This document shows, in pieces, positions 5,842 to 50,480 of a stretch of DNA of 64,000 nucleotides. The stretch is taken from NCBI RefSeq assembly GCF_000143415.4, contig NW_003314301.1, positions 1,170,981 to 1,234,980 of the forward strand. Direction: 5' to 3'. Source of the stretch: Selaginella moellendorffii (taxonomy: Eukaryota; Plantae; Lycopodiophyta). Each line of letters starts with the position of its first letter. Position 1 is the first letter of the stretch. Below the pieces are notes generated by a model. It saw nothing but the letters and a program-made list of their open reading frames with translations. It made no database searches and was not told where the DNA came from. The translations under genes and the position numbers were made by a program.

Positions 5842-7430
5842 TATGGTTTTTACCCTTTATCCTATGGTGATTTACCATAGGATAACAACGAAGTGGAACC
5901 TAAACCATCCATGTGCCACATGTCATGTATCTAAAGGATAGTGGTATGAAACCCAAGTTTCATAGCCTTGGGCCACTAAACAAAGAACAGAGCCAAACTC
6001 CTAAGTATGGAGCGAAGGAGCGAAGGTACTAGAGCACAGAGTGACTTTCGAGCATATAGCCCAAAGAGCAAAGGACAAGAGCACAAAGCGACTTGAAATA
6101 GTCCTAGAGCATCCAGTATCCCAATGCCAAGACCAACATGCAAAACAGAGCCAAACAAAGTCTAGTGGTATTTCAACATATTAGTAGCCTAACACAAGGA
6201 TATATGGGTACTCCACCAACTAATATGGTATGGAACTTAGGATTAAATCCACGCAAGACACAAAGCAAAAATAGGCATGCAAACGAGAGCTAGACTATAC
6301 CTCAAGTTGGTCAGTCATGCCTAACCTGATTATCCCTACTATACATTTAAAACTCCCTATAACCGTCCCCCCCCCCCCCCAGGCGAAAAAGCTATTTTGA
6401 GGAAACCCGGCTTGGGGTTTCACCCTAAGCCTCCCTTAGAGACAGGGGTTAGGCCCTAGGACAAACTTGAAAATTAGTAAAAAATAAAATATCCCTAGGT
6501 TGGGAATTTGGAAAGGGGGCCCACACCATTGGGTTCAAAAAAATCTCTACATTCCAAAAAAAGGCCAAAAAATTAAATCGAACCGCTTTCCATAAATAGT
6601 ATTTGGGAACGGAATGAGACTAACACAAAAGGGGGGAAAGGGGGGGTGTTTTAAAGAAAAGGGAAGCTATCATCCCGAAATATTAAGGGGCCAGTCCCAA
6701 AATGTAAGGGTTCTTGCCAAGGCAGGGCGAGAGAGAGGAAAAGAGAACTCATAAGCTAGACTAAATATACTTGGCTAAATAGACACTTAGGAATTCCTTC
6801 CTTATGCTCGTTTAGCCAAGTGTAGATGCAAAGTCCAATTACTAACACTTAAACAAGAGGGACTAATATAAGCTCCAACAATACCAACCTTTGTAAGCTC
6901 TTGAATTTGAACTTCCCGGGAGGTCACCCAGCCCAGTACTATTCAAACCCAAGGATGCTTAACCCCAAATATCCCAAGACCCTTAACCGATTGGAAAAGA
7001 AGGTGCACTCTTATTTATGGGCCCTTTCCCTTTATATTTGAACCCCATGGATCGTCTCTCAAGTTGTTCCCTTTGGTTGCTTACAATCCACCACGCTTCC
7101 CTGCAAATTCACGCCCTCGTGAACGAAAGCTGAGAGCCGTAGCTCTCCCGAGAGCCCCGCTCTCTTGACACCCTACCCCTTAGATCAACAGAGTCGGACC
7201 CGAGACCTCTCTGATACTAAATGTAAGCTCCTGAATTTGGACTTCCCGGGAAGTCACCCAGTCCAGTACTATTCAAACCCAAAGACGCTTAACCCCAAAT
7301 ATCCCAAGACCCTTAACCGATTGGAAAAGGGGTTGCACTCTTACCTTTTGCCGTCGTGGCAGTAAGGAAAGAATATCTGAAAGCTCTAGCTAATAGATAA
7401 CTTTTGATACCTGAAATCACATTTACAACA
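5842..7430 (-). repeat. 3' LTR of a minus-strand Ty3/gypsy-family element, interrupted by a Cassandra-like TRIM
   Basis: Ends match the LTR at 61800-62745. A reverse-complement polypurine tract TTCTTTCCCCCTTAAGG lies directly adjacent at 7431-7447. Confidence 0.75.
6892..7342 (-). mobile_element. Cassandra-like TRIM with 5S-rRNA-derived LTRs
   Basis: LTR 6892-7085 is bounded by TGTAAGC...GCTTACA; the second LTR is 7222-7342 (truncated). Both contain ACTTCCCGGGARGTCACCCAGYCCAGTACTATTCAAACCCAA..GCTTAAC, the reverse complement of the 5S A-box/IE/C-box region. PBS-like CTCTGATACTA at about 7209-7219, PPT at 7086-7101, flanking ACCTT duplication. Confidence 0.88.
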
Positions 7431-10400: not shown

Positions 10401-13290
10401 GACATTTGGGACAACATTTCGGAACACTGTAGCCCTACGCGAGCCTTGCAGGTACTCTCCCCTCCTGCCTTTGGGTGCTCTAGCCATGGGCTTAGAGCGA
10501 GGTTCCATTGAGCCATGCCAGGTATCCAAGTAGGTAGTGCCACCCATACTTTGACTGGGAGCATCGACTATTCGATCTCCCAGGGGAACTAGAGCCTGCT
10601 CTTGAACACTTCACCAAGCTACCCTGTTTGTCGGTCCGTATTCACTCTAGTCTTGGACTTCCCAGTGGTCAACTCATCACCCAACACCTGGGTATAGCCT
10701 TCCTGGGCCAAACTAGCCTTTCTTGGCCAAATTGGCTCCACTAGGCTCCAACCCTGATACTTTCCATACTATACTTTTGGAACCCCCCGCAGAACCCCCC
10801 CTAGGGGGACGATCGCTTTGGGCTTTCACCCAATAGCCTGTATTAGTATTCGAACTCGGACTCAGATTCGAAATCGGACTCGGACTCGGTCTCGGTCCCA
10901 GTTTCAGACTCGGACTCGATTTTGGTTTCGGTCTTGGTCTTGGTCTCGGTCTCGGTTCCATCTTGGACTCCATCTCGGACTCCATATCGGACTCCATCTC
11001 GGGTCCATTTCAAACTCCATCTCGGACTCCATCTCGGGTCTATCTCAGACTCCATCTCGGGTCCATCTCGGACTCCATTTCGGGTCCATCTCAGACTCCA
11101 TCTCGGGTCCATCTTGGACTCTATCTCGGGTCCATCTTGAACTCCATCTCGGACTCCATCTCGGGTCCATCTCGGACTCCATCTTGGACTCCATCTTAGG
11201 TCCATCTCAAACTCCAACTCGGGCTTCATCTTGGGTCCATTTTGGATTCCATCTCGGTCCATCTCGGACTCCTCCACATGTCATGTGTTGGTCCTCTTGT
11301 GTCCCTTTTCTAGAGACTCACTCATTGCTTGCTTTGTGCTTGTTCTTTGAGCACTTCGTTGGGAGTTCCACTCCCGCTTTCGACTTTTCAAGTTGGAGCT
11401 TTTAGTCCAAACGTGTTATGCTCGTTTGGCTTTTGCTTCGGCCATCACCATATTGCACCCTTTCAGCTCCACTTTGGGGCCTAGGGATTTTGTGTCTCAC
11501 ATTGTCTTAGCCCCAAAAGTCAGCATCCCTTTCGGGTCACATCATATAAACTACCTATTATAGTTTAAGCTAGTGAAAGGGTTAGAGTTGACTTCAATTA
11601 ATTTGTAATAGTTTTCGAAAATGGAATGGTTTTCAAGCAAAAACTTTAATAAATCAGCCATTGGAAAAGCCTAAAAAAATTTATGGAAAATTTTCCATCC
11701 TAGAAAAAGAATGAATCTTAGTCTAGAAATACAAATTCTCAAGACTCAACCAATTTCCTCTTACTAACAATTTTATATATGTTCACCTCAATACAAATTC
11801 TTATAACCTAACAATATGTCTAAGCATCGAATACCATACCTATATTTCTGACATCTAACACTGACATCTGTAAAATGCAAAATGAACATCCAAGGCTTAA
11901 TCACGAAGACCACATCTTTGGATATTCACATTGCACTAACACTTTTCTTCAATCACTTTTAAGATTCAGTTTGAAGCCAAAACACTAACAAGAAAAATAA
12001 CATGGAAATCCAAGATCTAAGGAAAATTCCTCATCACTTAAAATAACAATGTCACTCATTAACACAAGTGCTAACATTTTTAATGCCTCAACTACACACC
12101 TTTTCCATTTAACAATTTATTCGAAGTGCTAATGGATTAACTAACGAGCTATAGTAAATAAATGCTACAACCCTTTTCCAATACCTCAATGGGCAAACTC
12201 AAGGAACCAAGGAACCAACTTAAGCTTAGCATAATGAATCACTATAAAGAATCTAGTTAAAGTTACTACAATATTACTATATGTAAGTTCACTATCAACC
12301 ACTTTGGGGTTGAACATCGTTTAACCAAACAACTTTGTAAACATGTTACTCACTATCATATAAATATGATATAAAAATCACAATGACTTGATCATCAATT
12401 AAGCAATACCATGAGCAACACCCATGTCATTACTTCAAAGGTTTATGTGACTATCAAGTGCCAACTCGATTCAATAAAATGCAACATAAATGCCACACTC
12501 CACCGATAGAAATTTACGATACCCAACACCACTAACTTTTGTTCATAACATAGACAAGCTCATACCACTTTCTTTCTGACCAAAATCAAAACTAATCCAA
12601 CACCAGACTACTTAAGAAGCAATAGCAAGGTTCCTCGGAAAAGAATTAAGCATTGCAACCCAAGCCTTCAATAGTAAGCTTAGACAAAATGATTTAGTTC
12701 TTCACTGCTATCCATCCCATAATTCACCATTTATAAGATCATCATTTCCAAAATGTATCAAGGTAGAGACTCTTGATTACATAATATGAACACGAGCAAT
12801 GAATTAGCACCTCATTGCAAATCATCTCTCCAAGAGAAAATGATTTATGTTTTGATCCCTCATTCTTGATAACTCTCTTTTCGATCTTATCTTTAACTAA
12901 ACCTTAAGTTTGCTTTCACACTGCTTTCAGTCCAATCCAAGACAAGTTTATGAGAGAGCATGGCAATGACTGCTTGAACCAATAGACTAATCCCTACAAT
13001 CTTGATTGATCCACTCATAATCATGCCTAGGAAGGATCCACTAGTGCCGTCTTAAACAGCTACAAACTAGCCTATTTACCACTTATAGTAAACCCAATAG
13101 AGGTTTACTTTCATCTATGGTACATGGAACAACAACTGGAATCACCGATAAGCTAGCATTAATTCTGCCAACTCAAAGTGTAACCTTGAGTTACTAATGT
13201 GCCTCACTCATGAGCCCAAATGCAAACTCGTGCAAAATGGTATACCTCAAATCCATCTTCCCAACTCAAAGTGTAACCTTAAGTTGTTAA
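7431..13290 (-). mobile_element. Long, mostly non-coding internal region of the minus-strand LTR retroelement
   Basis: 7430-7830 is the reverse complement of 15760-16190 (the 3' UTR next to the PPT). 8830-9370 mirrors 5340-5840, and 13140-13260 mirrors 63880-64000. Confidence 0.6.
10850..11270. repeat. Tandem minisatellite (6-bp and 12-bp units GGACTCCATCTC / GGGTCCATCTC)
   Basis: The tandem array is directly visible. A decayed homologue lies at about 37480-37660. Confidence 0.9.
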
Positions 13291-13299
13291 TTGCCTAGG

Positions 13300-15700
13300 G
13301 CGAAGTCGTTGGTTCACCAAGCTAGATCTTGCTTTTGAGTACTGGCAAGTACCGATGGCCAAAAAAGATATTCCTAAGATTGCTTTTCGTACACCATTTG
13401 GTTTGTACGAGTTCTTAGTGATGCCGTTTGGTTTGAACAATGCTTCAGAAACTTTCCAACGAATGATGGATGAGGTTCTTTGTGATATGCCAGAGGTGAT
13501 TGCTGACTTCATTGATGATGTCTTGATTCACTCAAAGGGGACCTGGGAGGAGCACATTCGTGATGTTTGTAAAGTGTTGGATCGGCTACGCGACATTGGT
13601 TTAAAGCTAAAGCAGTCAAAGTGTGTGTTTGGGTCCAAGGATACAGCTTATCTTGGGTACCGTATTACTCATGAGGGTTTGCAAGTTGATCCTGACAAAC
13701 TTGTGGCTGTTCTAAAGTTCCCTACTCCGAAGTGTGTGAATAATGTGCAGTGTTTCTTGGGCAAGGTGCAGTATCTCAGTCGTTTTGTGGATCATCTTTC
13801 TGATTGCACTGCACCGTTGCGAGCGTTGCTGAAGTCATCAACATCATCTTTCATCTGGTCTCTGGATTGTGAATGGGCATTTGGGGATCTCAAAGAGCTA
13901 TTGATGACTCCTCCAGTTTTGGCATATCCTAACTACACTCGACCTTTTATTTTGCGTGTGGATGCTTTTGACATTGGTCTTGGAGGTGTGTTGATGCAAG
14001 AGAGTTCGAGTGTGCCTGGTCAACGCCATCCTATTGCGTATATAAGCCGTACATTACAACCAGCGGAAATGAACTACTCCACAATAGAGAAGGAGTGTTT
14101 AGCAGCAATTTGGGGTTTCGAGAAACTTCATGCATATCTATATGGTTCTCGGACATTACTTGAAGGTGATCATGCTGCTGTTACTTCATTATTGAAGCGG
14201 AAGAACCTAGTTGGTCGTACTGCTCGATGGGCTTTGAAGATTCAGATATATGATTTTGATGTTGTTCATCGCCCAGGGAGTTCTATGGCTGATGTTGATG
14301 CCCTTTCTCAAGCTCTTCTTCCTTCTCCATTCTCTTCTCATGTTTCTGATGAGCCTGTTATTCTAGCCTCTGTGGATTTTCTAGACGAGGATTTTGAGCC
14401 GTCGGCGGTTGTTGTACTTGACATTCAGTGTCCACAATGCGCAGAGCAAGATCTACCTTCTCTTGATGAGGTTCGTGAGGCTCAAAAAATTGAGCCGTGG
14501 ATTCGAAGGCTTCGAGATGGGTTTAAGAATCTTGCATCACTTGCTGATGACTTGCTTTTCCGGCATTTACATTCTCAATATCGCCTTGAAGACGGCCTTC
14601 TTTATTTTGTGGGGACGAATCTTGATGATCATTTACGGCTGGTGGTGCCTTCTATCTTTATTCCGCGGTTTCTCCATGCCTACCATGATTCTCCTGTTCT
14701 AGGTGGGCATATGGGACATGGTTGTGTAACTGAGAAGTTGCGCAGGTCTTTCTATTGGCTGGAGATGCGACGTGATATTATCCAGTATGTGCGTAGCTGC
14801 GTTTGGTGCCAAACTCGTAATACTCCCCCTCAAGCTGCGGAAGGACAGTTGGAGTCAATTGCAGTTTCTCGTCCGTTTGAGTTGGTGGCGTTTGATCTTA
14901 TGGGACCTTTTCCATGGTCAACTACTAGCAATGAGTATGTTATTATTGCTTCTGACTACTTGACTCGTTGGGTGGAAGTTGGTGCTCTTGCTAGCGCCTC
15001 TACAACTGCTATTGGATACTTCCTCCTCAATCGAGTGGTGTTCCAGCATTCTTGTCTAGAGTAGATTCTTTCAGATCCTTATCATCCACAATCAAACGGT
15101 CTGGTGGAACGACTCATTCGGACATTCAAGGGGATGATTGCGAAGTATGTGAACTTTCAGCATTTGGATTGGGATGGTTATTTGCCATCTCTTTGGTATG
15201 CATATGTCACAGGGGTGTAGAGTTCTGTTGGTGCTTCACCATATAAACTCCTATATGGTCATAATCCAATATTATCAATGGAGCTAGGTTTACCTTCGCG
15301 ATTGCCACGAGCTACAAATGCTAGGTCATGGGATTAGTATTTGACGAGCATTCTTCCACTTGTCCGAGCGAAGTCTGGCGAACACTTAGGCCACGTACAA
15401 GTGGGACAACAACGGCAGTACAACTCCTATCATCGTGCACCTGCGGAGTACAAAGTGGATGATTTAGTGTTAGTCCGTTTTCCCCATCTTACAATACGTG
15501 GTTTATCTAAGGGGCTCTTTGCACAGTGGAAAGGACCGTATCGGGTGTTGCAGCAAGTTAGACCACAAGTTTATGAGGTTCGGCATGACATCTAGCAGGC
15601 CGATCCTCTAGAGATTGTGCATATGTAGCGGTTGAAACGCTTCATACAAAGGGATCAGGAGCAGTTAATACCACCTACAGATCCGCCAATGCCTACTTTG
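13300..15700 (+). mobile_element. Ty3/gypsy pol (RT, RNase H, integrase), 5'-truncated and partly disrupted
   Basis: 569-aa ORF with VMPFGL, FIDDVLI, VDAFDIGLGGVL, NYSTIEKECLA, a zinc-finger H..GGH..C..CQ and the integrase core FDLMGPF..DYLTRWVE. A GPY/F motif (WKGPYRV) follows downstream. Confidence 0.93.
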
Positions 15701-16709
15701 GTGCATAGGTACAATCCATAACCATGGGGATAACTATTATAGAGTAATCGCAAATCCCCACCTCTCTCTCGTTGACTCATTTTTAAAAGGGGTGTGGTCA
15801 TGTAAATAACTTCATTTGCCAATTTATACTAGTTGTCTAAATCTTCCTGACGGGGTTGATTTCTTGCTCAAGGGATTTAGGCCTTTGGCTCCCTCCTTAT
15901 GTCCTTGCGGGTAGGGATGTATCAATCCTTTGTAAGCCAAGTGGTACTCGAAGTAACAAGGGTGGCTAACTCTATTAGTTAGTTCCTTGTTGGTGATGGC
16001 TAAAGGGTGTTTGAGTCTTAATGTCTTTTGATGTAGAGGAGAGGTAGTTTCATCACTCATTTAAGTTAGTGTGTTTCCCATATAATATGCTTTCTATTAA
16101 CTTTCAGAGTTGTTTTCTTAACTTTCAGAGTTGTTTGCTAGACTTAGGTTTGCATCAACAAGGACATTGATTTTCCTTAAGGGGGGGAGAGTGTCGTGAA
16201 TATGACTTCAAGTATCGAAAGATACTTATCCACTTATTGCCACGATGGCAGGAGGTCAGTATTGCTAGTTCCTTTTATAGTCTCCCCCCAAGCTAGTTGA
16301 GAAACTGGTTATTGCGTGTGCACTTGACCAAATGAGTATAAGGATGGAATTCCTAAATACTATTAGTCAAATATACTTGATTTGGTTAGAGAAACTCATT
16401 TATTGAGTTGCACTTGTTAGTGGTAGGAACCCCCTTGATATTGACTTTAGTCCCTTAATATCATTACATGGTAACTTATTGTATCTGCCAAACACCTTTA
16501 TTATCATGCTTTATGTGTTGGTTCCGCTTCAAATCCATATGCTATTTATAGTAAGTATTTAGATCTACCCAAAAGGCATATTTATGGAATGTAGAGAATG
16601 TCCTGAACTCTATAGTGTTGTTCCTGCTCCCTCATTTGCAATTTAGTGCTATTCCATATTTAATAAGTTTTCACATTTGTCCTAGAGACTAACTCTTGGT
16701 GCTAAGGGA

Positions 16710-19237: not shown

Positions 19238-20947
19238 CTAAGGGAGGCTAGGGGTGAAAGCCCAAAGTGTGTGTTCCTTAGGGGGGGTGGCATATGGGGA
19301 GTTCCAAATGTATAGTAAGCTCTATTTCGTTAAAGTGGGATTTATTCAGTAAAATGGGACTAGGTACAAATTTTCAAGTATTTGAAAATGACGTGAAATT
19401 ATATATTTTTTGTCCAGGGGCTAGACATATCTGGGGCATGGTGACTAGCGCGGTGACTTTGTGTCCAGACTGAGTCCATCTGGTTGTATAATAAATCTCA
19501 TTGTCAAGGTGAACAAGCCGAATATGAAACTAAAGAAGAGCGATGGCATGCGCGCACACACTATTTGTTTGTTCATTGAGCGTGTGGTGAGCTTTCCAAG
19601 ATGAACGTCATTCCTATTAGCCAGACATATAACTTAATGGTGAGAACATTTAGATATTATTCAATGTTATCTTTTTCTAACGAATCTAATTGTGAAGGTG
19701 TAGCAAGAGGCATTGCTAGTCTGGAGAAGTCATTTAACTCATTTGACCCTTAGTGTATTTTCATGAAACTAAATAACATTCATATTATTAAGGAATTTCT
19801 CTAGTACCTTTTTTTTACGACATAGAGGCTTGCATTTCTTTCAAAGGTGATTTAGTAAAAGGCCTGAGGGCACATGCCATTCTATTTCTCAGACCGGTAT
19901 TAAGATATACTAGTGCAAAGGGAAAAAGGTATTTGGTGATCAAGTAAATGGTATGAGGGCACACGCTATTATAAGCCTAAGCGCTAGTGGACACCTCCTT
20001 TTTGGTACTCTCAGCAGTACTATCATCCTTCTTCGGGTCAGTTGTTTTGCTTTGGATTGTTGTCTCTGACGTTACTGGGGCATTCTCGATAGTTGTTAAT
20101 GTTGCCGTTTGTTCAGAAAAATGATCACCTGGAGTATAGTACGGGGAGTTTGGAAGATTTATATATTCTACATCTTCACCTATCTCCTTCTCCGTCTCCT
20201 TTTCTGCCTCACTTACAGATTTTGTGCTTGCCATGAGAACGCTCTTCACCCTAAAATATGGAGTTCGTTGTGTTATAAAAGGAAACCAACACACACGCTG
20301 CAAGAGAATGATGGTACATAAAGCACATAAGCCCACAATATGGGTTTATGTGCCATTAATATGGGCCACACGCCATATTATTAGATTTATGCACGTGTGA
20401 TTGGTAAATGCATATGTCACATCATCTTTGTTTTACCTCACACACTATATCAGGCCTAATGAACCATATCACATGTGCGCACATGCTATATATATGGAGA
20501 AGTATTATGCAAGGATAGAAAAATTCAATGCATGATTGTGGAGAGCAATGGCATGAAGCCACATGCTAAATAACATTTTAGAGAAAGAATTAAAATAGAA
20601 ACATGCAAACAGTACTGAGTGGACCAAGACTTAGAAGTGCACAATTGAATGAGGTATTTCTAATAAATATTTCACTCACCTCATATAGGAATGGCTACCA
20701 CTCTCAAATGGCGTATCGCCTCATGCCATCACCTCGCAATTTGTTATAACAATCTGATGAATTCATATTCGGCTTGTTCACCTTGAACTTTAAGTAAGAT
20801 TTGCTAGAACAACTAAGAATTTATACTTGTTATTTGTATCATCTCACCTAGGAATGTCGTAAGGCCACATGCCATCACGCCTCCTCTGATTCAGATTCGG
20901 ATTGTTCACCTTGAAATAAAATACATTAGAAACTTAGTAAAGGAATA

Positions 20948-23636
20948 TTAATGAATCTCACCTTGAACCCGGGTTATGAATGCTCTTGCTGCATCTCTTG
21001 CATGGTCTGGCAAGGTGATGGTGGCACTCTGCTTCCGCATCCAACCATGCACAACATTATCCACCGATATGCTCATGTTGGGATCCCTTGGATTCAGCAC
21101 CCATCTGTTTTCTAGGCAATCCTTCGTATATCCGGAACTTGGCTTGAACCACTCCATAGCTACATTGAAGGAGTTAGTTTCCGCGTCCTCCTCTGCATCA
21201 GTGATGCAGCGCCCCACCCATATCATTTGTTTTTTATTACTGGGTCTGACAAGCACGACCATTCCTTTGCAGACCTGTACTGGATTGAATGCTGAATCCG
21301 GCTTCTTGTTCCTCGGCCCACAATAGTGATCCTCAACATCGTTATCTGTCACTGCATTTCCAGAGGACATTGTTCCGCTACTATCTGGTGCTCTGGGTTC
21401 TGGCCAAAAGGACTCTTCCAATTCTTCATATACAACCGGCCCATTTTGGATAGCAGATATAATCTTCTCCCAGTATTCGAGCAAAGGCTTGCACCTCTTA
21501 AAATAGGATTCTCCACCAAACACCAACCCCCTCTTCCAGAAGGCAATATGCTGTCTAATCCCGGCCACTATACTTTCCTGGTCTTTGAGTCCATCCGGGT
21601 GCATCGGCCGTGGGGAACCCTGAGGAATCATAGGTTCCCCAGTTATGGGATCTCTCTTGAAGAGTTCAATGCCGTCCACTGGCAGCCACACTGTGTCCCA
21701 TTCTCTCATCTTGTACCTCATCACTGGAGCACCGTCACGCATGCTGAAATGAAACTGAAGAGGCTTGGAGTGGCCAATCAGCGTTTCGGATCCGTCCCTG
21801 ATGTAGCCTCTTACAAACCCCTTAAAGTCTGGAACCTCTGTCACAAGTGCAGCTTCAACAGTGCCTTTGATGCAATTCTGGAATTCATCGTAGAGTTGTG
21901 GGAGGGTGAGGACATTGGATCGCCGGAGGGACTCTGCCAGGTGACTGAACATGGCATCGACGTCTTCATGAGTGTGCCCAACCATGAGAAAGCCAAGTGT
22001 AACCGTTTCAAATATGCCTTTAGCAACAAGCATCGCCAAGTACGCGAAGACGTACATGTTTTTGTTCTCATTGCCAGCATTGTCTGTTTGGAGCAGAAGA
22101 TGGGGTGGAAGGCCACATCGGCCGCAAGAACTTCCTTGAGATTCTGCTTCGTTTGGATGAGGCTGTGCATTCACCGGGCGACCAGCCTTGTCGTCACGTG
22201 ATAACCCTACAATCTGACGGCCAACATATTCACTGGGATGGCATGGGGCCCCACGCGATACTGCAAGCCTTTGCTCCTCCTCCAGCTGAACCCTGTATGG
22301 GGTTCGATCGACAAGGGCCTTATGCAAGGGTTGGCCGTTCAGCTCAGTCTGCGCACTTTGCAGAGACCTTAAGTGTTTTGCTAGGGACGCAATCATTATG
22401 TTTGCACCCCCGCCACCCCATAGAGGTACAAAGAAGTTCCCATAGTTCTGGGCACCATGCCCATGAGCGATTATGCCAAACAGAGACACAGGCAGCTGCA
22501 TGGATGAAGAGATTGCCTTGGGGGCAGGATTGAGTCGAGGTAAGCACGTCTTTTTCTGGTCCATTTTGTCGTGGATGATGCAGAGGTAAGAGTCAGGTCT
22601 CTCCATGGAGAGAATCCTGTTATGATAATATGCAGTCCTGCAGCTTCTCTGCTCGATGTTGTGGTCGAGCCGCCTTTTAACCAATGTCTCTCGCTCTTGA
22701 GCGCTACAAGAATTCTTTGACAAAGCCATTTTGATAGCAGTGCACTCATCACACTTTGAAAAGCTGGAGTACTTTCCTATACTCACATCCCTGAACCTGT
22801 TGCTCCACAATCTACTAAATCTAGATTGGCTCAGCTTCCTGTAGCCATTACTCTGGAGTTCCCGATTCACATCTTCCAATATGGCCCCCTTGGTATACAT
22901 GGAAGGGAGAACTCGTTGGGTGTCTCGTGTTCCATCTTCCAAGAGGCGGGTTTTATGTGGTTGCTACTCGCTACATGTCTCGACAAACCTCTTGAAGATT
23001 GCCTCTCCATATACAACATGACCCCTGGTTTTGTGCGTACCGTCGTTCCCATGGACTGCCTGTTGAACCCTTTGTTCCTCGAACTCAGTTTTGATTCTGT
23101 AGAATGTGCTTCGAGGGACTCCATAAATGATTCTCCATGCCTTCATGCAGACCAAACCCCTCTGGAAGACCATGCCCCCCACCTGATGTTCTGAAGCATC
23201 AACAGATGACCGTAATGCCTCATACACAAAATTGCGAGCTGCCTTCCAGGACAATGTCTTGTATCTTGCTCTCTCCTCTTCAATAGCATCCCAATCAGCA
23301 TGTTGACAGCACCTCCTCTTGCAACAAGCAACTGTCGAGACCATTTGAACCTCCATCGCCATTTTCTGCCTTTTCGGTTCATTGCTCAGATCCTTTTGGC
23401 TGCGCTTTAGGAAGGTGTACTTTCTTTTCCCATGAAGAGATGTTCTGTCATCAGTTGTAGTGGTGTTTGATTGTGAATCCTTCACATTCTCAAACACTAA
23501 GTGCCTCAATTTCCACCGCACAATGCTTCCAATAGTCAGACTGTTTTCTTCTGTGTCAACAACCTCTAAAATCGCAACTCCAATATCATCCCAGCCCAAT
23601 TCTTGATTAGCAACGCGCATCTCTTGGATCGACAAC
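20948..23636 (-). pseudogene. Sola-like (DUF7869-type) DDD transposase with one in-frame stop at 22964-22966; 5' end lies in or beyond the N gap
   Basis: ORFs 22964-23635 and 20948-22942 share a frame. Motifs CCKRRCC, FSKCDEC, IIHDKMDQ, QTDNAGNENKN and FLMVGHTHEDVDAMFS give three acidic catalytic positions. Confidence 0.8.
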
Positions 23637-24953
23637 NNNNNNNNNNNNNNNNNNNNNNNNNNNNNNNNNNNNNNNNNNNNNNNNNNNNNNNNNNNNNNNN
23701 NNNNNNNNNNNNNNNNNNNNNNNNNNNNNNNNNNNNNNNNNNNNNNNNNNNNNNNNNNNNNNNNNNNNNNNNNNNNNNNNNNNNNNNNNNNNNNNNNNNN
23801 NNNNNNNNATGGCCTAAATCATAACATACCAAACAACCTCAATAGCATGAGGCCACATGCCATTATTCAAACATGCTATTGACACCCATGTGAAATTTCG
23901 CATTCACAAAATTGGCATGAGGCCTCATGCCATCTTGATAAACACATAGCTACAAGTAGGTGAACATACCAGGAAGCACAAGTGCCGAATATCAAGAGGA
24001 AGCGGTAGCCACACCAAAGACAGTGCCGCTCGCAACACCGCAACTACTCGTAGCGCCGCTCGTAACACCGCAACTGCTCGTAGCGCTGCTCGCACAAACT
24101 GCCACTCGCATAAACTGTCGCTCGCAATGGCCCTCGCAATGCCGCAACGGCTCGTAGACGCATAAACCACAGCTCACAACGCCGTTTACACAAGCAGCGC
24201 TCACTGTGCTCAGCGGAACCAAGAACACGGCGCACAAAAATGATAGACCTAGGAATGAGTTCGAGAATTCAAAAATAACACACGCTTGAACGTCACATCA
24301 AATCCTCTGACAAACCAGATCTTATGATTCCTCTGACAAATTTCAAACTGAGTAGCGTCTAGACTTTGCTGTCGGAGGTTGAACTTTGTCACATCATGTC
24401 CTTGCCTCGATCCAGTTGTGCCATGTCAGTGATTCGAACTTTGCCATGCCATATCAGCGATCCGCGCCAAGATTATTCGCCGTGTAAAGGAATAATTATG
24501 TTGTGTGTGTACGTCCATTTATGGCAATATAAGGCCACACGCCATTCAAAGAATAATGCTAGTCAAGCATTTTTTGGTGTATTTTTGGGTTCAAAATTGC
24601 ATGAGCCCACACGCTATAAAGTTTACCTGTACCAAAAATAGAAACAACTTTATTTACTTGGGAATTTAAGTGGTTGAGGCATTTTTAAACTTACAAACAC
24701 ATGCCCTACTTACATTCCTTTGGTTGCTTAAAATTCAAAAATATTATAAACCTTTCTTTTTGCATTTTCAATGTTTTCAATTATGGTTTTTGATTTTCGC
24801 AGGACCAGCCTAGTAATCTATTTGCATCCCGTCATGTTTATAGCTAGCTTTCGTTTGTCCCCTTCGCTAGCCTGAGATACATCTGCTCGGCATCTGCCTC
24901 TTACAGCATTTGCCCAGAAAGGGCATCTTTCTTCACGCAGCATTTGCCACATG

Positions 24954-24979
24954 TTTAGGGTTTAGGGTTTAGGGTTTAG
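24954..24979 (+). repeat. Interstitial plant telomeric repeat (TTTAGGG)x3.7 / telo-box cluster
   Basis: TTTAGGGTTTAGGGTTTAGGGTTTAG. Confidence 0.85.
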
Positions 24980-26205
24980 CAATTCAGGAGCTTGATAAAC
25001 ATGCAAATACAGAACTTGATGCAAAATCCTTTGATATGTCACAATGCCCCTAGGACCATAAACACATTTCAATAGAGAGGGTCCTTTCATTTCATAACTC
25101 CTTACGTAGATCTTGGTGAAACCAGAGTTAGTGAAGTTAGTTTCTTGTGATCCCGCATCTGATTGTGATGTCCCTTTGCAGTTTCGATGGAAAGGTCAAT
25201 GCACACCAAACTGTAAAATCTTGGAGCAAAATAACGGTCGGATCTATGGCAAATGCCCCTGAAACATTGTAAGGCTCGTGTGGTCTCATGTGGTGTCCGA
25301 TCGAGATGCTTCTTTGCAGGGTCATCAAGAAAGACATTGTATACCATTCTATAAAATCTAGTTGCGATCTAACGGTTGGATCTCCAGAAAACTCAAAAAA
25401 ATCTCGCGCGTGTTAGAATATTCTAGGAATATACTCCTATGTGCCCCTGAAAATGGCATGCGGCCCCACGCCATTCAAGAGATAACGCCAGATGACGCCG
25501 AGCATTTTTTGGTGCATTTTTTGGGATTTTTTGTATACCATTCTTTATTTAGCTGAACATCTGGCATTTTTGGAAATACAAGATGCTTTGGAATATTCAA
25601 TCATGCATGGTATAAATATAGCGAGGGTATTAAATGATATCCCAATCATGATCTTTCTTTTGGATTTCGCGTGCATGCAGTCCGAGGAATGATGACGTTG
25701 CGGATTTCTTTTGGATTTCACGTGCATGCATGCGCGCGGTGATCCAGAAATTAATGGTGGCGCCCAAGTCTGATGAATGATGACGTGGCAGGATTACCAA
25801 CCGTCGTGACATTTCGCGCGTGTGAGGTTAGGTTTTGCATTTTGCTTCGTACTCGCGCTCGCATTGCGCTCCCACTCGCGATCACGCTCACATTCGCACT
25901 CATCTACCTTCTCTACAGGTTTCTCGTGTGCATCGGCGTCCACTCGCGCTTGCATCACACTCGCGCTCGCATCGCGCTCGTGTGCATCGGCGTCCACTTC
26001 AAGACACACCCAGTTTGTAACTTCGCCGCCAACTCCGCCGCCCACTCCGCCACCCACACGCAGCCCACTTGGTGTCCCGGGAGATTTCAGCGCCACTCTC
26101 CAACTGTAAGTGGCAGAGTAGCCTTGCTGCTACGATCCGCTACACACACAGTGCACATTCGCCAGCGAGTCTGGCCTCGATTGTCACGCCTCCATTCGGC
26201 TTCAA

Positions 26206-29200
26206 ATGGTAAGTCTTTTAGGCCAAGTAGAAAATGGCATGAGGCCACATGCCATTCAGTAGCAACATTGGCATGCACCGATTAGGCTCTCGAGTGCAGT
26301 CCGGTTACAGATGGCGTGTAGCCTCACGCCATCTTAGGATGCAACCTCAAGACATCTGATGCAGTGGTGAATAGCGTGTGGCCTCACGTTATTTCCAGCT
26401 GCTAGCTTTTCATCTGTCAGCTCTAATTGTTGTGCATTTCTGAACAGGCGAGGAATTGCGTTCTTCTTCCAGCCACTGTCAATGTGGATGCAGAGAAGGG
26501 GGAGGAGCTCACCAGTTGGACTTTCGGGATGGAAGGCGAGGATCTGAGGCTGTACAACACAGATGGTGGGAGAAAAGAATGCATGGGGATCCTCATCCAA
26601 GTGACAGACACTCCATGCAGTTCCATGCAAGAATATGGACTGGCACTTGTGGTAGAGACAGCGTCCGCCTTCAAGATCCACCTTGCACATCCTAGCGGCT
26701 TCCCGGAGGGGGGCAACGGCTATGAGGAATTCCTAGAGGGAGCTAGGGAGAGGTTGTCCAGGAGGCCCACAATTTCAAAGACGTTGCGGGTCTATGAAGA
26801 TCACATGGAATCCACGGACCTCACCTATGGCGATGTTCAAAAACTATATTCCAACATTGAGCCGTTGAGAGTGCCTCCAGTTCGCGAAGCGAAGGGGAAG
26901 GGGGTCGATCTGGAAACTACCCCGAAGCAGAAAAGGGTGGTCAAGCTCAAGCCGATGTCCGACTCTCTTGCTCCAAAAAAGAAGCTACTCGGTGATGCCA
27001 TTGCCTCGAGTTCGAACACTACACCCACCAAAAAGAAGAGCCGCAAAGAGCAGAAAAAGCAAGAAGAGGCAGCAAAAATCGTCGCAGATAATAGTACTTG
27101 TTACTATTCCAACAAAGTATATACAATCGACGTGAGCCGTATCGACATCCAAAGCAAATACAACCACAGGCTAGTATCTGATGAGTGGGTGGAGAAACTG
27201 AAGCAGAAGATGCTGGCAAGTCCAGTAACACCCGACATCGTAGACGTGATCCCCTACTACCGAACAATGAAGGGCGAGACGAGGTTTCCAGACTTGATCA
27301 ATAGGAAGGTGTTGGACGATCAGAACATCCGGTTCTATGCCGTCTCCGGGCAGCATTCTAGCTTGGCGATGCAAGAGATAGTTGTGGATATTATGGTGGG
27401 CGAGGAGGTGAAGAAAGTCTTCAAGACAAGAGTTGTCCGCCTGATAAAAGGCAACTCGCCCCTCCGATCTATCATATACATCTCCCACGCGCAGAATGTC
27501 AAGCAAGAAACATGCTACAAATCGGGTCTGCACGAGACATTGGCACGAACACAGAAGCTCTGGGTTCAACTGAAGAAGCCACAAAAACCAGGACAAGGAC
27601 GTGCACTAGCAACTAGCGTCTGGCAGGTAAGCCTCGTTGCATGTGGCATGTGGCCTCACGCTATTTCCATTGCAGGAATTCTCGAGTCTTCTCTCAAAAA
27701 CACTGGGGGTCAATGACACACTCAGCATCCATAACATTCTACTCGCGACAAAAGTTGTTTTTGACAAATGGGTAGATGTGCTGAGGAGGTACCATGACGG
27801 GGAGTTGCTAAACTCAATGGGTGTGGAGGACGGCCGGAAGCCCAATGATTTGAAGCTCAACGCCTTGCGTTTCTCGCGGTCTCTAGACGACGACGACCTT
27901 CTGACAGTGGCTAATGCTCTTCTACGTGGTGAGGTAATCTTCAACAAGACCAAAATGACTCCCGGCCATATTGTGACATACGAGGACTTGTGCACGAATC
28001 TGAGAGCTCGTGCGCTATTGAAGGATTGGATCTTCGAGCAAGTGGCCGTGGAGAGGGTGAGCATCGACACCACGCAAGAGATGATGGAAGCGCTGGAGTT
28101 GTCAAATGAAGACATCGACGAGTACGTGAAGGGGGCCCCCAAGTTCATCGATCTGCTGCAGGATGCCACGAAAAGTAAAGCTGAGAAGTTGGATCAGTAT
28201 CCAAATTTCATTAAGAGGGATGTCAACCGCCGGCTTCAGAAATAGCTCGACCCCGCAGCAGAGGCCTATCGAGAACCTTACCGGGTATACGTGAATTCGG
28301 ATGAGGATCAAAGGTGGAGGAGCATCGTTTCCCGCGGAGATGAGCAGGTCAAGAACATCTTTTGTGTGATGGACTTCACAAACGAGGAGATCACTCATGC
28401 AGACGAAGTCAGCTCCATCATTGACTTAATGGTGGGACTTGCGGAGGTGGAATCTTCAGTCCACTATATGATCTACGACTCCGAATCCTATCACAAGTTC
28501 TAGAAGGCCTTAAACGAGGTGAAGGCTCGGTTGAAAGGCAAGAAGATGCGGGAGATCCATGGGATAATGGCTAAGAAGAAGATACCGACGAATGTCCGCA
28601 TCTTCACAGTCGCCCTTGTTATTGGTCCTGCAGCAGAGTGGGACTGGAGTGACTTCCCAGCTTCGTTCGACAAGGCCGATCGAATTGATATGAGGGAGGT
28701 CAATTTACCCGTGCCTGAGGAACTGAAGATGGCTATGGAGCTTTCGAATCCAAAGAAAGCTTCAGGTGCAGCATGGGAAATGCTCAGCTGGGTCTTCAAC
28801 GCAATAGCGGGTGGGTCACCTGCTTCCGACTCCAAGGGCAAATGCGTTGTCGAGTACAATTGCGGCGGACTATTCTTTTGAGCCGCACTACTCAAGGGTG
28901 TCCCGTGTGTTGCGGTGACAAACTCCATTGAAGAGGTGACTTCAATGGAGCATATAATTACAGTTGCCAAAGAAAAACAGTATCTTCTCTGCGAACTTGG
29001 TGAGTATGCACTTTAAGTTTAAATGTTATCTCACAAGCTCTGTATGCAGGAGCGTGGCCACCCCCAGATGCTGAAACGGCGTTAACAGCTACTGTTGAAG
29101 ATACCCATGTTGGGCCGAGCTCACAACCTGCACAAGGTAAGGTCACGTGAGGCCTCACGCCATTTTGATTATAGATCGTTGTGAATATTCAGACACGAGG

Positions 29201-31822
29201 ACTGAAAAGCGCACTGGTGGCGCGTCGAAGAAGGACAAACAGACAAGCAATAGGAAAAAAGGAGGTACAAATTATATTTGCAATGGCGTGTGGTCTCATG
29301 CCATTCCTTGTAGGAGACACTTCTTCAAAGGCAAAACAGGCAAGCACCAGCCAAGCTCAAACTGACAGTGGTCATAAAAAGCGAAAGCACGTTGGACAGT
29401 CATCGGGATCATAGGCGTTTGATTTGAAAAGGAAGAAGGGCAACGAAAAGATGATAGGTAATGCCTCGCGGTTATGGCGTGTGTGCTCATGCCATTCATT
29501 GCAGATCAAGGGCTGAGTGAAAGTAGCCAGTCACCACCTCCTGACTCAGATTCCTATGGCAGACTCCCCTTCCCCAATCTCAATGGAGAGGTACAATGGA
29601 TGAGGGATGCTTTTCAAGTCAGGGCCACGTTTTTCTCATCTCGTCGTCTTCGAAGGGTGCAAGAACGTGCAGAAACCATGTTAAGACAATCGGGTGAGGA
29701 TACAGTCCTAGGTCACGCACTAAAACAGGCTATGGATGTCTTGTATTTTGAGATGGAGACTCGGCCAGATGATTTTCCCAATATGGTCCTGGAAGAACAA
29801 GCCATCCAGCCTAAGCAGCCTATGGAAGAAATGCAGGAGGGGGATGAGGAGCTAGAGAAAGATAATGAGCAGGAAGAGCAGAAGGACGAAGAGGAGGACA
29901 AAGAAGAGGAGGACGAAGAAGAGGAGGACGAAGAGGACTTGGATGGTCCTCACAATGGTGACGATCACAATAACGACGACGACGATGATGATGACGATGG
30001 CCAGCCTGAGGTGGCCAAAGAGCAGCGGAGGAAGGTCATACAAGACAAACCATCAGGTAAATAATAGTACATCCATTCCTAACCTTTTACCATTTCTAAC
30101 ATTGTCCATGTAGGTCGCAGAGCAAATGGTAAGTAGAGATTATTCAGTTGAATTTACAAACTCTAGCCTTTAGTGTCGAGGAAGGATAGTGCCAAGCAAG
30201 GGTCGAAACGTATGTCCAATCCTTCAGAATCAACAGTGCGCCCAAGTGATATCGGTCCTAGTTCCTCAATAGCAGTTGATGGTAAATATAGTATAGTCGA
30301 TTCAATGTGCTAATGAGTTTGTTTTTAGTAGCACGGGAGGATACCATCTCAATCGAAGGGAGATATTTGGACATGCATATAGATCCGCCAGTGGACTCTA
30401 CTTGCCTGCAAGAGTCATCAGAGCTGGTGGAGGCTACTATCCATATCAACGCCAAGCAAGCTGACCACGCTCCACTTGATGCTACCCATACCACTGAGTC
30501 AATCTTGTCCACGTATCCAACTGACGGTGACCAGGCGCCATTGGACCCGCATGAGGCCACCCCAGCCGTCGAGCCGATCGTATCCTCATTTCCAACGGAC
30601 TCAACGTGTGCCCAATCGTCTGACTACGCGCCGTTGGAACCTCCCTACACCACCCCTGCTGCCTATTCGGTCATGTCCACTTTGCCAACGGAGGCACCAG
30701 CTGAAATGGCGTGTGATCACACGCCATCGGAACCACCTCATGCCACTGTTGAGCCAGTTGTACCAGAGTCTACAGCTGAAATGGCATGTGCCCACACGCC
30801 ATCGGATGCGATTGACCCCACATTGCAGAGGAGAGTATTTCCACCCTTCACGTTTCCTCGACCAAAACCCTCTCAATGACCATCGGGAGCACCATTCGCT
30901 AATATTGTAAATGGTAAAATTGACTTGTACCATTTTTTATGCTGACGCATTTCATTTTAGAGTCACGGCGAAGGTACTGTATCGTTTTTGATCTGAACGG
31001 TGTCCTTTTCTCCCATGAGCGTGGCTCGTCCTCGAATGTCACTGCACCCTCCAAAGCCTGCGGTCGCAAGTTGGTCAAAAGAGACAGATTCACATTAATC
31101 ACACGGGAGAAACTGCGGGATCTAATAATGACCATGTGACACTTAAAACAGAGGGCCGGGTTCAATTTGCAATTGGGAGTTTGGACATCTATGATGCGCC
31201 ACAATGCATTAATGTTGCTACAGATGATGCACGATCAGACGCGAGTAATATTACCATTTGACTTTCTCCTAACGCAGAAGGATTGCTTAACTATGGTCCA
31301 TGTGAGGGGTAGCAAGCCCATCTTCGTCAAGCCAGAGGCTGTAGTGATGAACCGGACTGCTAGGTCAAGTGAAATCCTCATCATCAATGACTCGCCGATT
31401 AAAACTGCAGCGAACATGCACACATATGCAGTGCACCCCATCTCTTGCAGTATGGAAACTAAGGAGAAGAAACCGTATGTTCTGGGGATCTTGCAAAACG
31501 GCTTGGAGCGATGGTGATAGAGAACCGGCCAGTCCAGGAGGTGGCTGCAGAAATCAACCAAATGGCAGATGGAACGGTATATCAGAAGCTATTTGATCAG
31601 ACAGACACCAGTCATCATTTATGGCATGTATATTGTCTAGCCAAGCACTATCCGCATCTCCATAATCTGCTCAACCGGATGGGTTCTTCGACCACTGAAC
31701 ATGAGCGTGGACATATTAGAGAAGAGATGGCATTACTATTGGGTTTAAATCTTGATAGTGTGGAGAGTGATGAAATTCCAAGATTATTGTATAGGCGTTG
31801 GAGGCAAAAAATAACAGTCTGA
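26206..31822 (+). pseudogene. Transposon cargo gene of about 1,640 aa and 11 exons: ParB-like domain, degenerate beta-class DNA methyltransferase-like fold, acidic linker, FCP1/NIF-like HAD phosphatase
   Basis: GT-AG introns 26209-26447, 27627-27675, 29000-29049, 29137-29192, 29265-29313, 29458-29504, 30057-30113, 30129-30173, 30282-30328 and 30914-30960 join the ORFs in frame. Motifs IDVSRID..NHRLVSDEWVEKLK..FYAVSGQHS; GKCVVEYNCGG..AALLKGVPCVAV; IVFDLNGVL..LGVWTSM..LTQKDC..IINDSP. Six premature stops and a probable frameshift near 31514. Confidence 0.72.
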
Positions 31823-33179
31823 GATGGCATGTATTTATTTAAAAATGTAACTTATTATAGCATGGGGTTCCATGCCATTGTATTAATATTAAAAGACAAT
31901 TCTTTGAGAGGATTTGCATTATACTAGAAGTGTTACAGCATGTTATTGGAAGTCTACGAATTTGTTTTATTAATAAGGGGAAAGTAAAGATTGAATGGGG
32001 ACTTGGGCTCCACCTAGACTCAGAGCAACTGAGCCAATATTAAAAGGATGGAAAGAAATTGGACGACGATGACAAGGAGAAGAGAGAGGTGAAGCAATGG
32101 CATGGGGAGGAGAAGTGATTGAGTAGACATTTCCTTGTTTAAAATAAAATGGCATGTGCTTCAATGTAGTTAAATTTTGTTATATTTATATACTATATAA
32201 AGGTTTGGAAACCTTATTTTACAAGTGGGATAATGATAATTCCCACTTTAACGAAATAGAGCTTTAGTAGGGACAGTGGGTGGAATGCATGTTTGACCAC
32301 CTGAAATATTAGTTTAACTTTTGCTAGGCTGTGTCGCTCTTTGTTTTGTGTTCGGCTTGGGTCTAAACCTAAGCTCCATGTTGCTCTAGTTAGTGAGGTA
32401 CCCTCCTCCTTACGTTATTCCACCAGTATGCCAAAATTGTGCTAAACACCATCTAATACCATTTTGCATGTAAGTGCTAAATACAAGAAGTTGGTGCTCA
32501 TAGGATTAAGAGTGTACTACACCCTTGTTTCATAGCATAATGGGTTTGGAGTTTGTTTCCAAATTCATGTGCATTACAAAGGTGTAAACAATAGCCATTG
32601 CTTCTTTTTCCACATCCACATACTTCTTCTCAATCTCAAAATATGCTGTAATCATAGGAGTGTCCTCATCCTCAAATAAAGATGCTCAGAACACCACATC
32701 TGACAAACTTGTCTCTAGCAAGTCAGGCAAGAATGCTACTATCAAACTCAAAGCTATTGTCCCTTGCTCTCTCTACTTCTGATGCTCTGAGCATGTGACC
32801 TCTAATGCAAGAACTAAAGCCAAGTATTCTGCTAGTGAGGGGAGATCCTCCACTAAAATTGAGTCAAAGTCTAGGGCTGAATCTTCAATGCAATATACTT
32901 AGATCAATATCGGGGGCTCCATAATAGGAAATTCTGAATTCAAAGAGCTATAACTCGCAACACATCAAATTGGCTTGATTCTTTTTGCCAGCTGTTTGGC
33001 TGGATGTTACCCTTTATCTCCAAAAAATAGCATGACAAAATATGCTTAGAGTTGTGAGCTACAGCCATTTTAGTGGGAAGATGCTAGCTATGTGGGACCT
33101 TAGGCAGTTGCTGAAGAGAACTAAATTCAGTTGCATCTTGTGAAAGACAAATTTGGTCTAGAGTGACTATATCATTAAG

Positions 33180-43200: not shown

Positions 43201-43344
43201 TTTTATTTTATAGGAAGTGTTAAAATTTGAAAAACCACATTAGCAGGCTTGCTGTGCTCGAGAAAGTTCACAAGAGAGAATGGCAATGTGATGATCATTT
43301 GCATGCCATGTTGATGTATGCATCCACTGGATTAATGACCAGCC

Positions 43345-43860
43345 CTGAAAACTTCACTGCAGTTTAGCAGCTCTTTGGTTTCTGGGGTGGATCCCCCCAA
43401 GCGGTGTATGCTCTGGACGGGTTGTGCTAGTTCCAGGCATCTTTGCTTGAGGTCAGGAAGGGCTTGGACATCATTGGAGCTTTGAGACAAGACCTAGAAC
43501 ACTTCAGCTATATCTTCCATCCCGAGCCTTTGGAACTGGAGTATAACCATGGTTTGTGTGTCTGCACACGTAAAGAAGGCACTGAGATAAATGCCTAGGT
43601 TTAGCCATATGAAGATCAGATGGATTACATCAAGGATAACTAGAACAATGGAAGTTTGCATTCCTCATGGCATCACGAGAGGCACTCTTTGAAAGATCAA
43701 GGATATACTACATGGCTAAGGATTGTTCAGGCTCACCAGATTCTTGCAGTGATGCTAGCGATGTTGCAGATAACTTGGAGAGCCAGGCACGATGCACTGC
43801 TGCAACATGTCCAAAGACAAATTTTGAGAGGAACATTTGATTTGTGTTCTAGATGAGATT
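43345..43860 (+). pseudogene. Decayed, inverted partial copy of the Crinkler-like gene at 48801-50423
   Basis: Encodes FTAV*QLFGFWGGSP, YEDQMDYIKDN and RARHDALLQHVQ, all matching the intact ORF. Contains stops and deletions. Confidence 0.85.
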
Positions 43861-47468: not shown

Positions 47469-48900
47469 ATGGACACGAAGGCGGAGAGGGCTTTGGCGTG
47501 GAAGAAGAGGATGGCTTTGATGATGGAGAGGGAGAAGGCGCTGGGTGCGCTGCAGAACATCTACGTATGCGATCGCCTGGCCCAAGATCTCATCAATCAT
47601 CCGCAGACGCAGGAATTGGGCGCCTGGGCGGACAAGAAGAAATCATCGACCGCCCTCTACTGCCTCGGCAATCACAAACTGGGCAGGCAGGAGGAGATGC
47701 TGGGATGGGGGATCTGGGAAGCAATGTGTGGGTCCAATGCCATAACCCGCAAGGCTCCATACTTTCTTCGCGCTCTTGGATTTGGGGAAGAGGAGCTGGG
47801 CGACGAGGAGCTGCTGGATGCGATGGAAGTGTTCATGCACGCGTCTTGCCTCACCACTCTTCCCGAAGGGCCGTGCTTTAGCACCAGCGTTGTGTTTGTG
47901 ACGGGGAGCCAGCGTTTCTACCAAGCTCTGGCGCGGGACGAAAACTCTTGGAGGAAGATGAGCCTGCTCATCACTTACGAGCTCCACGTCTGTGCTTCGC
48001 CTTACAGTGCAAACGATCGGGTCTGGCCCATTCTTCCCGACCACACCGAGCCCGTGGAGCAGTGTATCATACCCGGTGCCAAACGAAGCAAGAAGATCCC
48101 GGAGTAAAAGCTTTCCAATCTCTCTTCTTCTTTTTTCATGCGTTTTTATGTTTTTCTCAGGTTTGGAACTCCCTTTCGTGTTCCCTGTCCAACCATCAGC
48201 CAACTCTACAGTGGCGAATACAGTCGATTTCCATGGTAAGCGTTTTCAGTCGATTTCATGGCAAGTTTTTTCCACCACCTTCTCACAGGCTTCATGAGCT
48301 GCTGGATGTTTACGACCAGGCCAAGCTTGATCTTCCTGCAGAAGCTGCTTCTCATAGAGTAAGAGTTTCTGGCTTTGCTACACTTTCTAGAGCCCTGGAA
48401 ACTCAAAGCTCTGTGTGTTTTTGTAGGAATACCCTGCATACGTCGCCAAGCTCGAGCAAAGTTCTTCTTCCTGTGATCAGCGACTTTTGAGCAAGCTCTT
48501 GAAGATCCAGAAATTGAATCCAGGCGGCGTTGAGGCTGGATGTGCTACCACTTGATTTCCGAGCGGACAAGGTATGGATTGATCGATCTAGAGAACCTCC
48601 TCTTCTTCCCCCTTTTGTACTTTGGTAGGCGCGAAGAATGCTAGTATATACTGGTATAATGGATTAAGGTTTCTTCTAAGAAATCTCGTCCAAGTGGACA
48701 AGCGATCTTTTAAAAACATAATGCGATATTACAGGCGAGTGCGATCTCTAACCAGTATCAAAAAATATAGTATTAAGATTTATTTTAAAATTGAAAAAAA
48801 TTAACAATACTTTTTGCAAACTTTTATGGGTAATCTTTCAAGCTTTGAAAATTGCAAGAACCGCAAAATTAGAAGAGGAAAATCGGCTGAAATCCCCACA
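47469..48900 (+). CDS. Multi-exon gene of unknown function
   Basis: GC-rich 212-aa first ORF followed by GT-AG introns and short exons; telo-box-like AAGCCCTAAACCC upstream. The 3' end is uncertain and no family was recognised. Confidence 0.45.
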
Positions 48901-50423: not shown

Positions 50424-50480
50424 CGCCTTAAACCCTACATTTTGAAGAACCCTAAATCTCTATCTTAGGGTTCTTGGGCA
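50424..50480. promoter_or_regulatory. Very short divergent intergenic region with telo-box-like motifs
   Basis: AAACCCTAC, AACCCTAA and TTAGGGTT within the 57 bp between two oppositely oriented start codons. Confidence 0.55.

Follow-up and report, generated by a model that had tools for sequence, protein, structure and literature searches.

By following up a sequence-only reading of a 64,000-nt stretch of the Selaginella moellendorffii genome (contig NW_003314301.1, positions 1,170,981 to 1,234,980; hereafter, the window), we identified a DNA transposon of 12,948 bp that encloses a large accessory gene and in which a 22-bp palindrome occurs 20 times, mostly in its non-coding parts. The accessory gene encodes, in this order, a domain resembling ParB and sulfiredoxin (ParB/Srx), a helical domain, a degenerate DNA methyltransferase (MTase)-like domain and an FCP1/NIF-like domain of the haloacid dehalogenase (HAD) type. 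The same order recurs in the liverwort Riccia sorocarpa, where such genes lie close to transposase genes of the same family. The reading that we favor, with a rough probability of 0.45, is that the accessory protein would bind the palindromes of its own element and serve as a non-catalytic anti-silencing scaffold.

The element has the attributes of a cut-and-paste transposon, namely terminal inverted repeats (TIRs) of 24 bp, a target-site duplication (TSD) of 4 bp with TAGT at each flank, and a gene for a DDE-type transposase (Table 1). A host repeat related to the one it interrupts is seen without insertion elsewhere in the window (family D13). Duplication of 4 bp is a feature of the Sola superfamily (Sola1), and the TAGT on both sides agrees with it; the label Sola-like for the DUF7869 transposase comes from motifs ascribed to the superfamily together with this duplication. 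The CxxC/H, HDKMD, QxDN and GHTHExxD motifs, which include acidic ones, are kept in 19 aligned transposases, and a sequence search of PDB with this alignment gave no match. In the window, the transposase gene has one in-frame stop near 22964, which the near-identical database protein P0126 reads through, and is interrupted toward its 5' end by a gap in the assembly (23637-23808). The family is abundant, as 25,090 contigs of one DNA run match the 5,951 bp examined and are spread over all 30 bins and several identity levels. Because the accessory gene is located between the TIRs, it is not a host gene. A virus or provirus is likewise ruled out by the DDE-type transposase with TIRs and TSD, and no viral gene was seen among the open reading frames (ORFs) of the element. 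The sequence-only reading of the accessory gene missed the transposon, with its TIRs, its TSD and its divergently oriented DUF7869 transposase gene, and also the palindromes. Separately, the central spacer of the element contains three TTTAGGG plant telomere-type repeats (24955-24980), and telomere-like letters also occur at one joint in DNA run X1.

Table 1. Features of the transposon and its accessory gene (window coordinates).
Feature	Position	Strand	Remarks
Whole DNA transposon	19317..32264	.	TIRs and TSD; sits in another host repeat
Left 4-bp TSD, TAGT	19313..19316	+
Left TIR	19317..19340	+	24 bp perfect, 28/29 matching
Right TIR	32241..32264	-
Right 4-bp TSD, TAGT	32265..32268	+
DUF7869 DDE-type (Sola-like) transposase gene	20948..23818	-	Pfam PF25273, E 8e-43
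Palindromes (20)	19544..31877	.	consensus ATGGCRTG-WGGCCW-CAYGCCAT, 22 bp
Palindrome starts, 1-10	19544, 19860, 19949, 20549, 20709, 20855, 22239, 23843, 23913, 24597
Palindrome starts, 11-20	25454, 26235, 26312, 27644, 29143, 29284, 29475, 30707, 30782, 31858
Accessory gene	26206..31822	+	11 exons, ~1,640 codons, pseudogene in this copy
Accessory-gene introns, 1-5	26209-26447, 27627-27675, 29000-29049, 29137-29192, 29265-29313
Accessory-gene introns, 6-10	29458-29504, 30057-30113, 30129-30173, 30282-30331, 30914-30960
N-terminal domain, then lysine-rich linker	26448..26885	+	no Pfam match
ParB/Srx-like domain, GQH[S/T] motif	27100..27590	+	E 2e-12 vs Riccia profile at Z=1e6
Helical domain common to Riccia proteins	27676..28240	+	13.9 bits vs Riccia profile; helical in Riccia model
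Degenerate beta-class N4C/N6A MTase-like domain	28290..28990	+	collinear with Riccia motifs; hhalign
Linker: low-complexity, basic, acidic, Pro/Ser/Thr-rich	29050..30913	+	seven short phase-1 introns inside
FCP1/NIF-like HAD domain	30961..31483	+	DLNGVL replaces DxDx(T/V)
C-terminal tail past frameshift	31484..31822	+

Splicing by coordinates reproduced the ten GT..AG introns that had been proposed from the letters, with phases 0, 0 and then eight times phase 1; nine of them are 45-57 nt long. The spliced frame comprises 1,529 codons and contains six stops (28243, 28501, 28879, 29412, 30877 and 31137), followed by a frameshift near 31483 and a 112-codon tail to 31822. This copy is a pseudogene because of the six stops and the frameshift. 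Among the differences listed, contigs of other copies have sense codons at no fewer than three of the six stops (28243, 30877 and 31137), and other copies have an extra G at 31483, which accounts for all of the depth of the presumed RNA run X18 and about 16% of that of X1. Of the listed C-to-T and G-to-A changes private to this copy, 26/34 fall in CG/CHG contexts against a cytosine background of 34%, which is, judging by sequence, a decay pattern under plant DNA methylation. Decay mainly at CG/CHG cytosines suggests that the host methylates the element, and hence that there is silencing to counter. The only splicing support of RNA type is a 59-nt contig of a presumed RNA run, in which a different donor is joined to the acceptor at 26448. 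The X18 contigs span the introns unspliced and may be DNA, and those of X19 and X20 lie mostly at the 5' end of the gene with foreign flanks; therefore these runs are uninformative on the expression of the accessory gene.

That the domains belong to one gene, as had been claimed from the ORFs, is supported by R. sorocarpa, in which they occur in the same order within single proteins; separate genes were rejected on this ground. Exon 2 had eight matches in a full HMMER scan, and seven of them share the ParB-like region; the repetitive yeast protein P0114 was rejected as a spurious match, having no match to the Riccia profile. Comparison of exon 2 with longer proteins by a word-based method yielded no match. 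The Riccia protein R1sor_025532 (P0125), a member of one of the matched clusters, contains the ParB-like region, a weak N6_N4_Mtase match (E 6e-4, below the cut-off) and a NIF domain (PF03031, 24.8 bits), in that order. A further search added 54 Riccia proteins and none from other species, bringing the total to 55. With profiles built from these same sequences, the MTase part was found in 55/55, the NIF domain in 34/55 and the ParB part in 20/55, and five of the 55 have ParB, helical, MTase and NIF parts all in order; most of these gene models are partial. As measured by locus-tag numbers rather than on DNA, of the 23 Riccia DUF7869 tags five are no more than 4 numbers away from any of the 56 tags of accessory genes, where chance would give 0.4-0.5 (p about 1e-4, whether the null was uniform or locally jittered). 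Dozens of Riccia gene models annotated as 'FCP1 homology domain' are explained in this way as transposon genes and not host phosphatases. One Riccia protein, P0163, is named by its source as a BAH-domain protein, which is possibly a chromatin-reader fusion or else a gene-model artefact.

The three domain assignments made from the letters were borne out to different degrees. For the ParB/Srx-like region (placed at 27100-27520), ESM Atlas returned ParB_N (35% of members) at 0.93, with only 139/256 features shared, besides unnamed eukaryotic clusters at 0.96 and 0.95 and DUF3723 (31% of members) at 0.95; against the Riccia profile, exon 2 scored 51.5 bits and exon 3 14.8 bits. In the degenerate MTase region (28770-28950) the motifs are collinear with those of Riccia, and the motif-I stretch reached a local hhalign score of 31.8, above 60/60 shuffles, whereas the global alignment did not exceed shuffles. 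The FCP1/NIF HAD domain (30970-31450) reached the Pfam cut-off for PF03031 (21.9 bits vs 21.8, E 1.5e-4). The helical domain is a candidate DNA-reading or dimer part, and the N-terminal domain gave a best ESM Atlas value of 0.89 (recognition 1813). No match was obtained in Pfam for the separate accessory-gene ORFs, and no significant one in NCBIfam or PHROGs for the window's pieces; sequence searches of PDB with the NIF part and with the ParB alignment yielded nothing informative, and no BRCT or other partner domain was detected beside the FCP1-like domain. Fungal DUF3723 clusters (0.95) are among the nearest Atlas neighbors of 27060-27626, which suggests that DUF3723, presumably a Starship-associated family, may be ParB-like.

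The structure searches proposed by the sequence-only reading gave both expected matches via a Riccia homologue, the ParB/Srx one being the weaker. We modeled Riccia P0139 with AlphaFold2 from a 60-row alignment, with a predicted local distance difference test (pLDDT) of 63. The model matches M.RsrI in Foldseek (E 7.9e-6) and the beta-class MTases M.RsrI, CcrM, M.MboIIA, M.PvuII and rotifer N4CMT with VIA Z-scores of 11-13 (for CcrM, Z 13.3, root-mean-square deviation (rmsd) 4.2 A, 198 residues aligned), and it has the permuted Rossmann fold, in which motif IV precedes motif I. Its N-terminal part (residues ~20-230) matches PadC (Z 6.9, rmsd 6.7, 125 aligned), sulfiredoxin (Z 6.1, rmsd 3.4, 82 aligned), free serine kinase (Z 6.0), pNOB8 ParB (5.9), KorB (5.5) and SbnI (5.0). 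We take all six to be ParB/Srx proteins, and it is their agreement, each Z being modest, that carries the predicted ParB/Srx fold. Phage proteins of 400-510 aa, among them one with the name ParB/Sulfiredoxin, can be aligned with the Riccia model along some 660-690 of its columns, across both parts, which supports a prokaryotic or phage-type origin of the ParB-MTase module.

Catalytic motifs are missing from this conserved framework. Neither (D/N/S)PP(Y/F/W) nor FxGSG occurs in any of the 55 Riccia proteins or in the exons of the window, so that the methylase is predicted to be dead in both lineages; an active methylase was discarded on this loss. The DxDx(T/V) motif of FCP1-type phosphatases is found in 0/55 Riccia proteins, which have DVEGL, and the window reads DLNGVL: the window, Riccia and the metagenome locus L022 described below all retain the first aspartate, which is the nucleophile, and the second is replaced by Asn in the window and by Glu in Riccia. 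Phosphatase activity is accordingly doubtful, though the first aspartate is kept. The CTP-dependent ParB clamps use the arginine of Box II, GxxRxxA, for binding of cytidine triphosphate (CTP). At this position the accessory proteins have GQH[S/T], invariant in 8/8 aligned sequences and 14/14 Riccia motif matches, with Ser or Thr in place of the arginine, which makes CTP clamping doubtful. These substitutions weaken the earlier ideas of a clamp module and of its delivery to the element of a phosphatase for the C-terminal domain of RNA polymerase II (Pol II). The retention of a dead methylase suggests that such proteins can function even if they place no mark on the DNA.

The palindromes were located by scanning for TGGCRTG-N6-CAYGCCA with up to two mismatches, which gave 20 sites within the element and none in the other 51,052 bp of the window; among 100 sequences simulated with matching dinucleotide composition, the mean was 0.2 and the maximum two. 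As the motif was itself derived from the element, its count there is post hoc, and the outside zero and the intron bias are the independent checks. With 61% of positions coding, 17/20 sites nonetheless fall in non-coding ones (p 3e-5). In the accessory gene, introns contain six of eight sites, compared with 9% expected (p 1e-5), and four of these six are each alone in an intron of 47-56 nt. The spacer is itself palindromic (WGGCCW), and the eight matches with an 11-nt spacer at two mismatches are likely to be these sites again, read across the GGCC core. A family-specific motif enriched in the non-coding parts of its element is the arrangement of VANC-type systems, and, as for VANC21 (PMC5735166), the sites are spread along the body of the gene instead of being limited to the vicinity of the ends.

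In the reading that we favor, the accessory protein and not the transposase would read these palindromes, binding as a dimer along its own element. The dead methylase would provide a DNA-binding or dimer surface, and the FCP1-like domain would bind the phosphorylated tail of Pol II, or another phosphoprotein, without efficient cutting of the phosphate. The resulting VANC-like scaffold would keep the element transcribed or unmethylated, the outcome being its anti-silencing. Since the element pairs a well-defined candidate target, the 22-bp palindrome with its 20 copies and no occurrence elsewhere in the window, with a candidate reader that has liverwort relatives, this self-recognition can be tested by one gel shift. 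Several observations weigh against it. The Z-scores of the ParB part (5-6.9) are below the caution line of 8. The folds rest on the Riccia homologue; a single-sequence model of window exon 3 has a pLDDT of 34. No DNA-reading motif was identified in the accessory protein. The NIF domains of the window and of Riccia do not detect each other, and therefore the capture of an FCP1 domain could have occurred twice. Finally, palindromes are dispersed across a wider family of related loci, which keeps the transposase in play as their reader; those in metagenome loci that have no accessory domains would fit transposase-binding sites equally well.

These loci come from a metagenome scan that was seeded with the transposase alignment, the ParB alignment being too divergent as a seed; 80 of 392 confirmed loci were kept, of which 57 are distinct. 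They carry another palindrome, TAGTGGCCACTA, picked from L022, in 80 copies (13 of them in L022) compared with 1.4 expected, and 17/57 distinct loci have it in two or more copies. Of the 57 loci, which are decayed and in many cases short, L022 alone shows an accessory domain (NIF, in divergent orientation to the transposase), and none has a ParB or MTase match that is significant. L022 (= L025, L026) is at 1202-12482 a decayed DUF7869 element with candidate TIRs and two NIF-like segments, and all of its 27 copies of TAGTGGCCACTA (up to two mismatches) lie within that interval. In L001 (643-1582), the transposase is 40% identical and a palindrome of its own, TGGCCATATGGCCA, occurs three times upstream of the gene.

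A somewhat unlikely alternative, the best of those considered, is that the palindromes are transposase-binding sites, as are the subterminal repeats of CACTA or hAT elements, and that the accessory protein aids transposition in another way, for example by steering integration to Pol II-associated chromatin via its FCP1-like domain. In loci such as L057, L027 and L047, where no accessory gene is detectable, palindromes still flank the transposase on either side, and a TGGCC/GGCC core is common to the palindromes of three lineages (those of the window, L001 and L022 type), as a conserved transposase DNA-binding domain might yield. Against this, the sites of the window run through the introns of the accessory gene, kilobases from both ends; the densest arrays are in long loci (27 sites in L022, 20 in L032), and L022, the densest, has an accessory NIF gene. 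Copies that lack the cargo could be served in trans.

An active phosphatase, loaded or slid onto the element by the ParB module and altering the tail phosphorylation of Pol II (or Pol IV/V), is an improbable explanation: the retained nucleophile and the PF03031 score speak for it, and the replaced second aspartate, the absence of DxDx(T/V) and the loss of the Box II arginine speak against it. We give a slightly smaller chance to the gene being a passenger picked up by the element, or the decaying remnant of a ParB-methylase that was once active, with no present role and with palindromes left from an active ancestor; all three domains have indeed lost their catalytic motifs, this copy is a pseudogene and many Riccia models are partial, but proteins that share only about 20-30% identity still have the GQH motif and the degenerate fold of the methylase, at least half of the six stops read as sense codons elsewhere in the family among the differences listed, and the gene is still linked to the transposase in a liverwort.

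A broader extension of self-recognition by the accessory protein, which we regard as unlikely, is that seed-free land plants have a second, independently evolved anti-silencing system, in which a dead phage-type ParB-methylase would read parS-like intronic palindromes and a captured FCP1-like domain would grip phosphorylated RNA polymerase tails, thereby holding the element active.

Outside the transposon, the window contains a decayed Ty3/gypsy-type region of reverse transcriptase, RNase H and integrase (13283-15750), a tandem array of 11-12-bp repeats (10900-11260, family D1) and a GH3 acyl-amido synthetase gene (53564-55114). This gene, the TTTAGGG repeats and the CG/CHG decay point to a land plant as host, and relatives named from mosses and liverworts make a seed-free one probable. 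An open frame of 552 codons on the minus strand (48801-50459), partly repeated in inverted orientation near 43300-43800, has a P-loop-like stretch and no match in Pfam; it is reminiscent of Crinkler/RHS-type genes.

Our literature searches, which covered subscription journals and Repbase reports only in part, found no paper that names DUF7869, that holds both DUF3723 and ParB, or that combines ParB-like, transposon, methyltransferase and FCP1; nor did they find in print the land-plant occurrence, the dead methylase, the FCP1 fusion or the intron-embedded palindromes. The accessible parts of PMC5751038, PMC10853773 and 10.1101/2021.09.26.461848 contained nothing decisive. Already in print, as far as the accessible texts go, are ParB-methylase accessory genes (Ectocarpus Sola1) and ParB genes with inverted repeats (red-algal Plavaka), and self-binding of ParB accessory proteins in algal transposons is a published proposal, for which those texts report no test (PMC12477816; 10.1101/2025.02.11.637652).

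The FCP1/SCP (NIF) HAD phosphatases share the PF03031 match with the accessory protein and differ from it in the DxDx(T/V) motif. Phage ParB-methylase fusions have the same ParB-then-MTase order and fold, whereas the accessory gene is intron-rich and eukaryotic and, unlike these fusions and beta-class MTases in general, lacks the catalytic motif IV and the motif-I FxGSG. Methylases of phage ParB-terminase loci in eukaryotes are discussed in the accessible part of PMC4738411. The closest described system is Sola1-1_Ec32 of Ectocarpus, a Sola1 element of 21.5 kb with an opposite-strand accessory gene for a protein of 1,104 aa that contains ParB-like and N4C/N6A methylase domains and for which binding to, and modification of, its own element have been proposed (PMC12477816). 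Both are giant Sola-type elements with the accessory gene opposite the transposase strand. As compared by description only, the Ectocarpus element is from a brown alga, its methylase is described as predicted to methylate, and the accessible text names neither an FCP1 domain nor palindromes, whereas the window element is from a land plant and has a degenerate methylase, an FCP1-like C-terminus and 20 dispersed palindromes. The fusion that the sequence-only reading called unusual is therefore real but less unusual than it seemed, given the transposon context and this published accessory gene. In the Plavaka elements of the red alga Bostrychia, the available text of the preprint describes a ParB-like PAG3 with inverted repeats nearby and a PF01555 methylase, PAG2, and proposes self-binding (10.1101/2025.02.11.637652). 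These elements differ in that the transposase belongs to another superfamily, ParB is fused to a 2-oxoglutarate (2OG) oxygenase, the methylase is fused to SET in a separate gene, and the repeats form tandem arrays beside PAG3 instead of single sites dispersed through introns. The same preprint, in its accessible part, states that no transposon other than VANDAL is known to bind its own sequence and modify it (10.1101/2025.02.11.637652). Motif-guided anti-silencing has been tested experimentally for VANC21, with binding and demethylation shown in the accessible text (PMC5735166). Like the protein studied here, VANC of Arabidopsis VANDAL is an accessory protein of a DNA transposon with a family-specific short motif dense in non-coding parts, including introns; VANDAL elements are Mutator-like and their 9-bp motif is non-palindromic and arranged in tandem arrays. 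We compare VANC as an analogue only and claim no homology.

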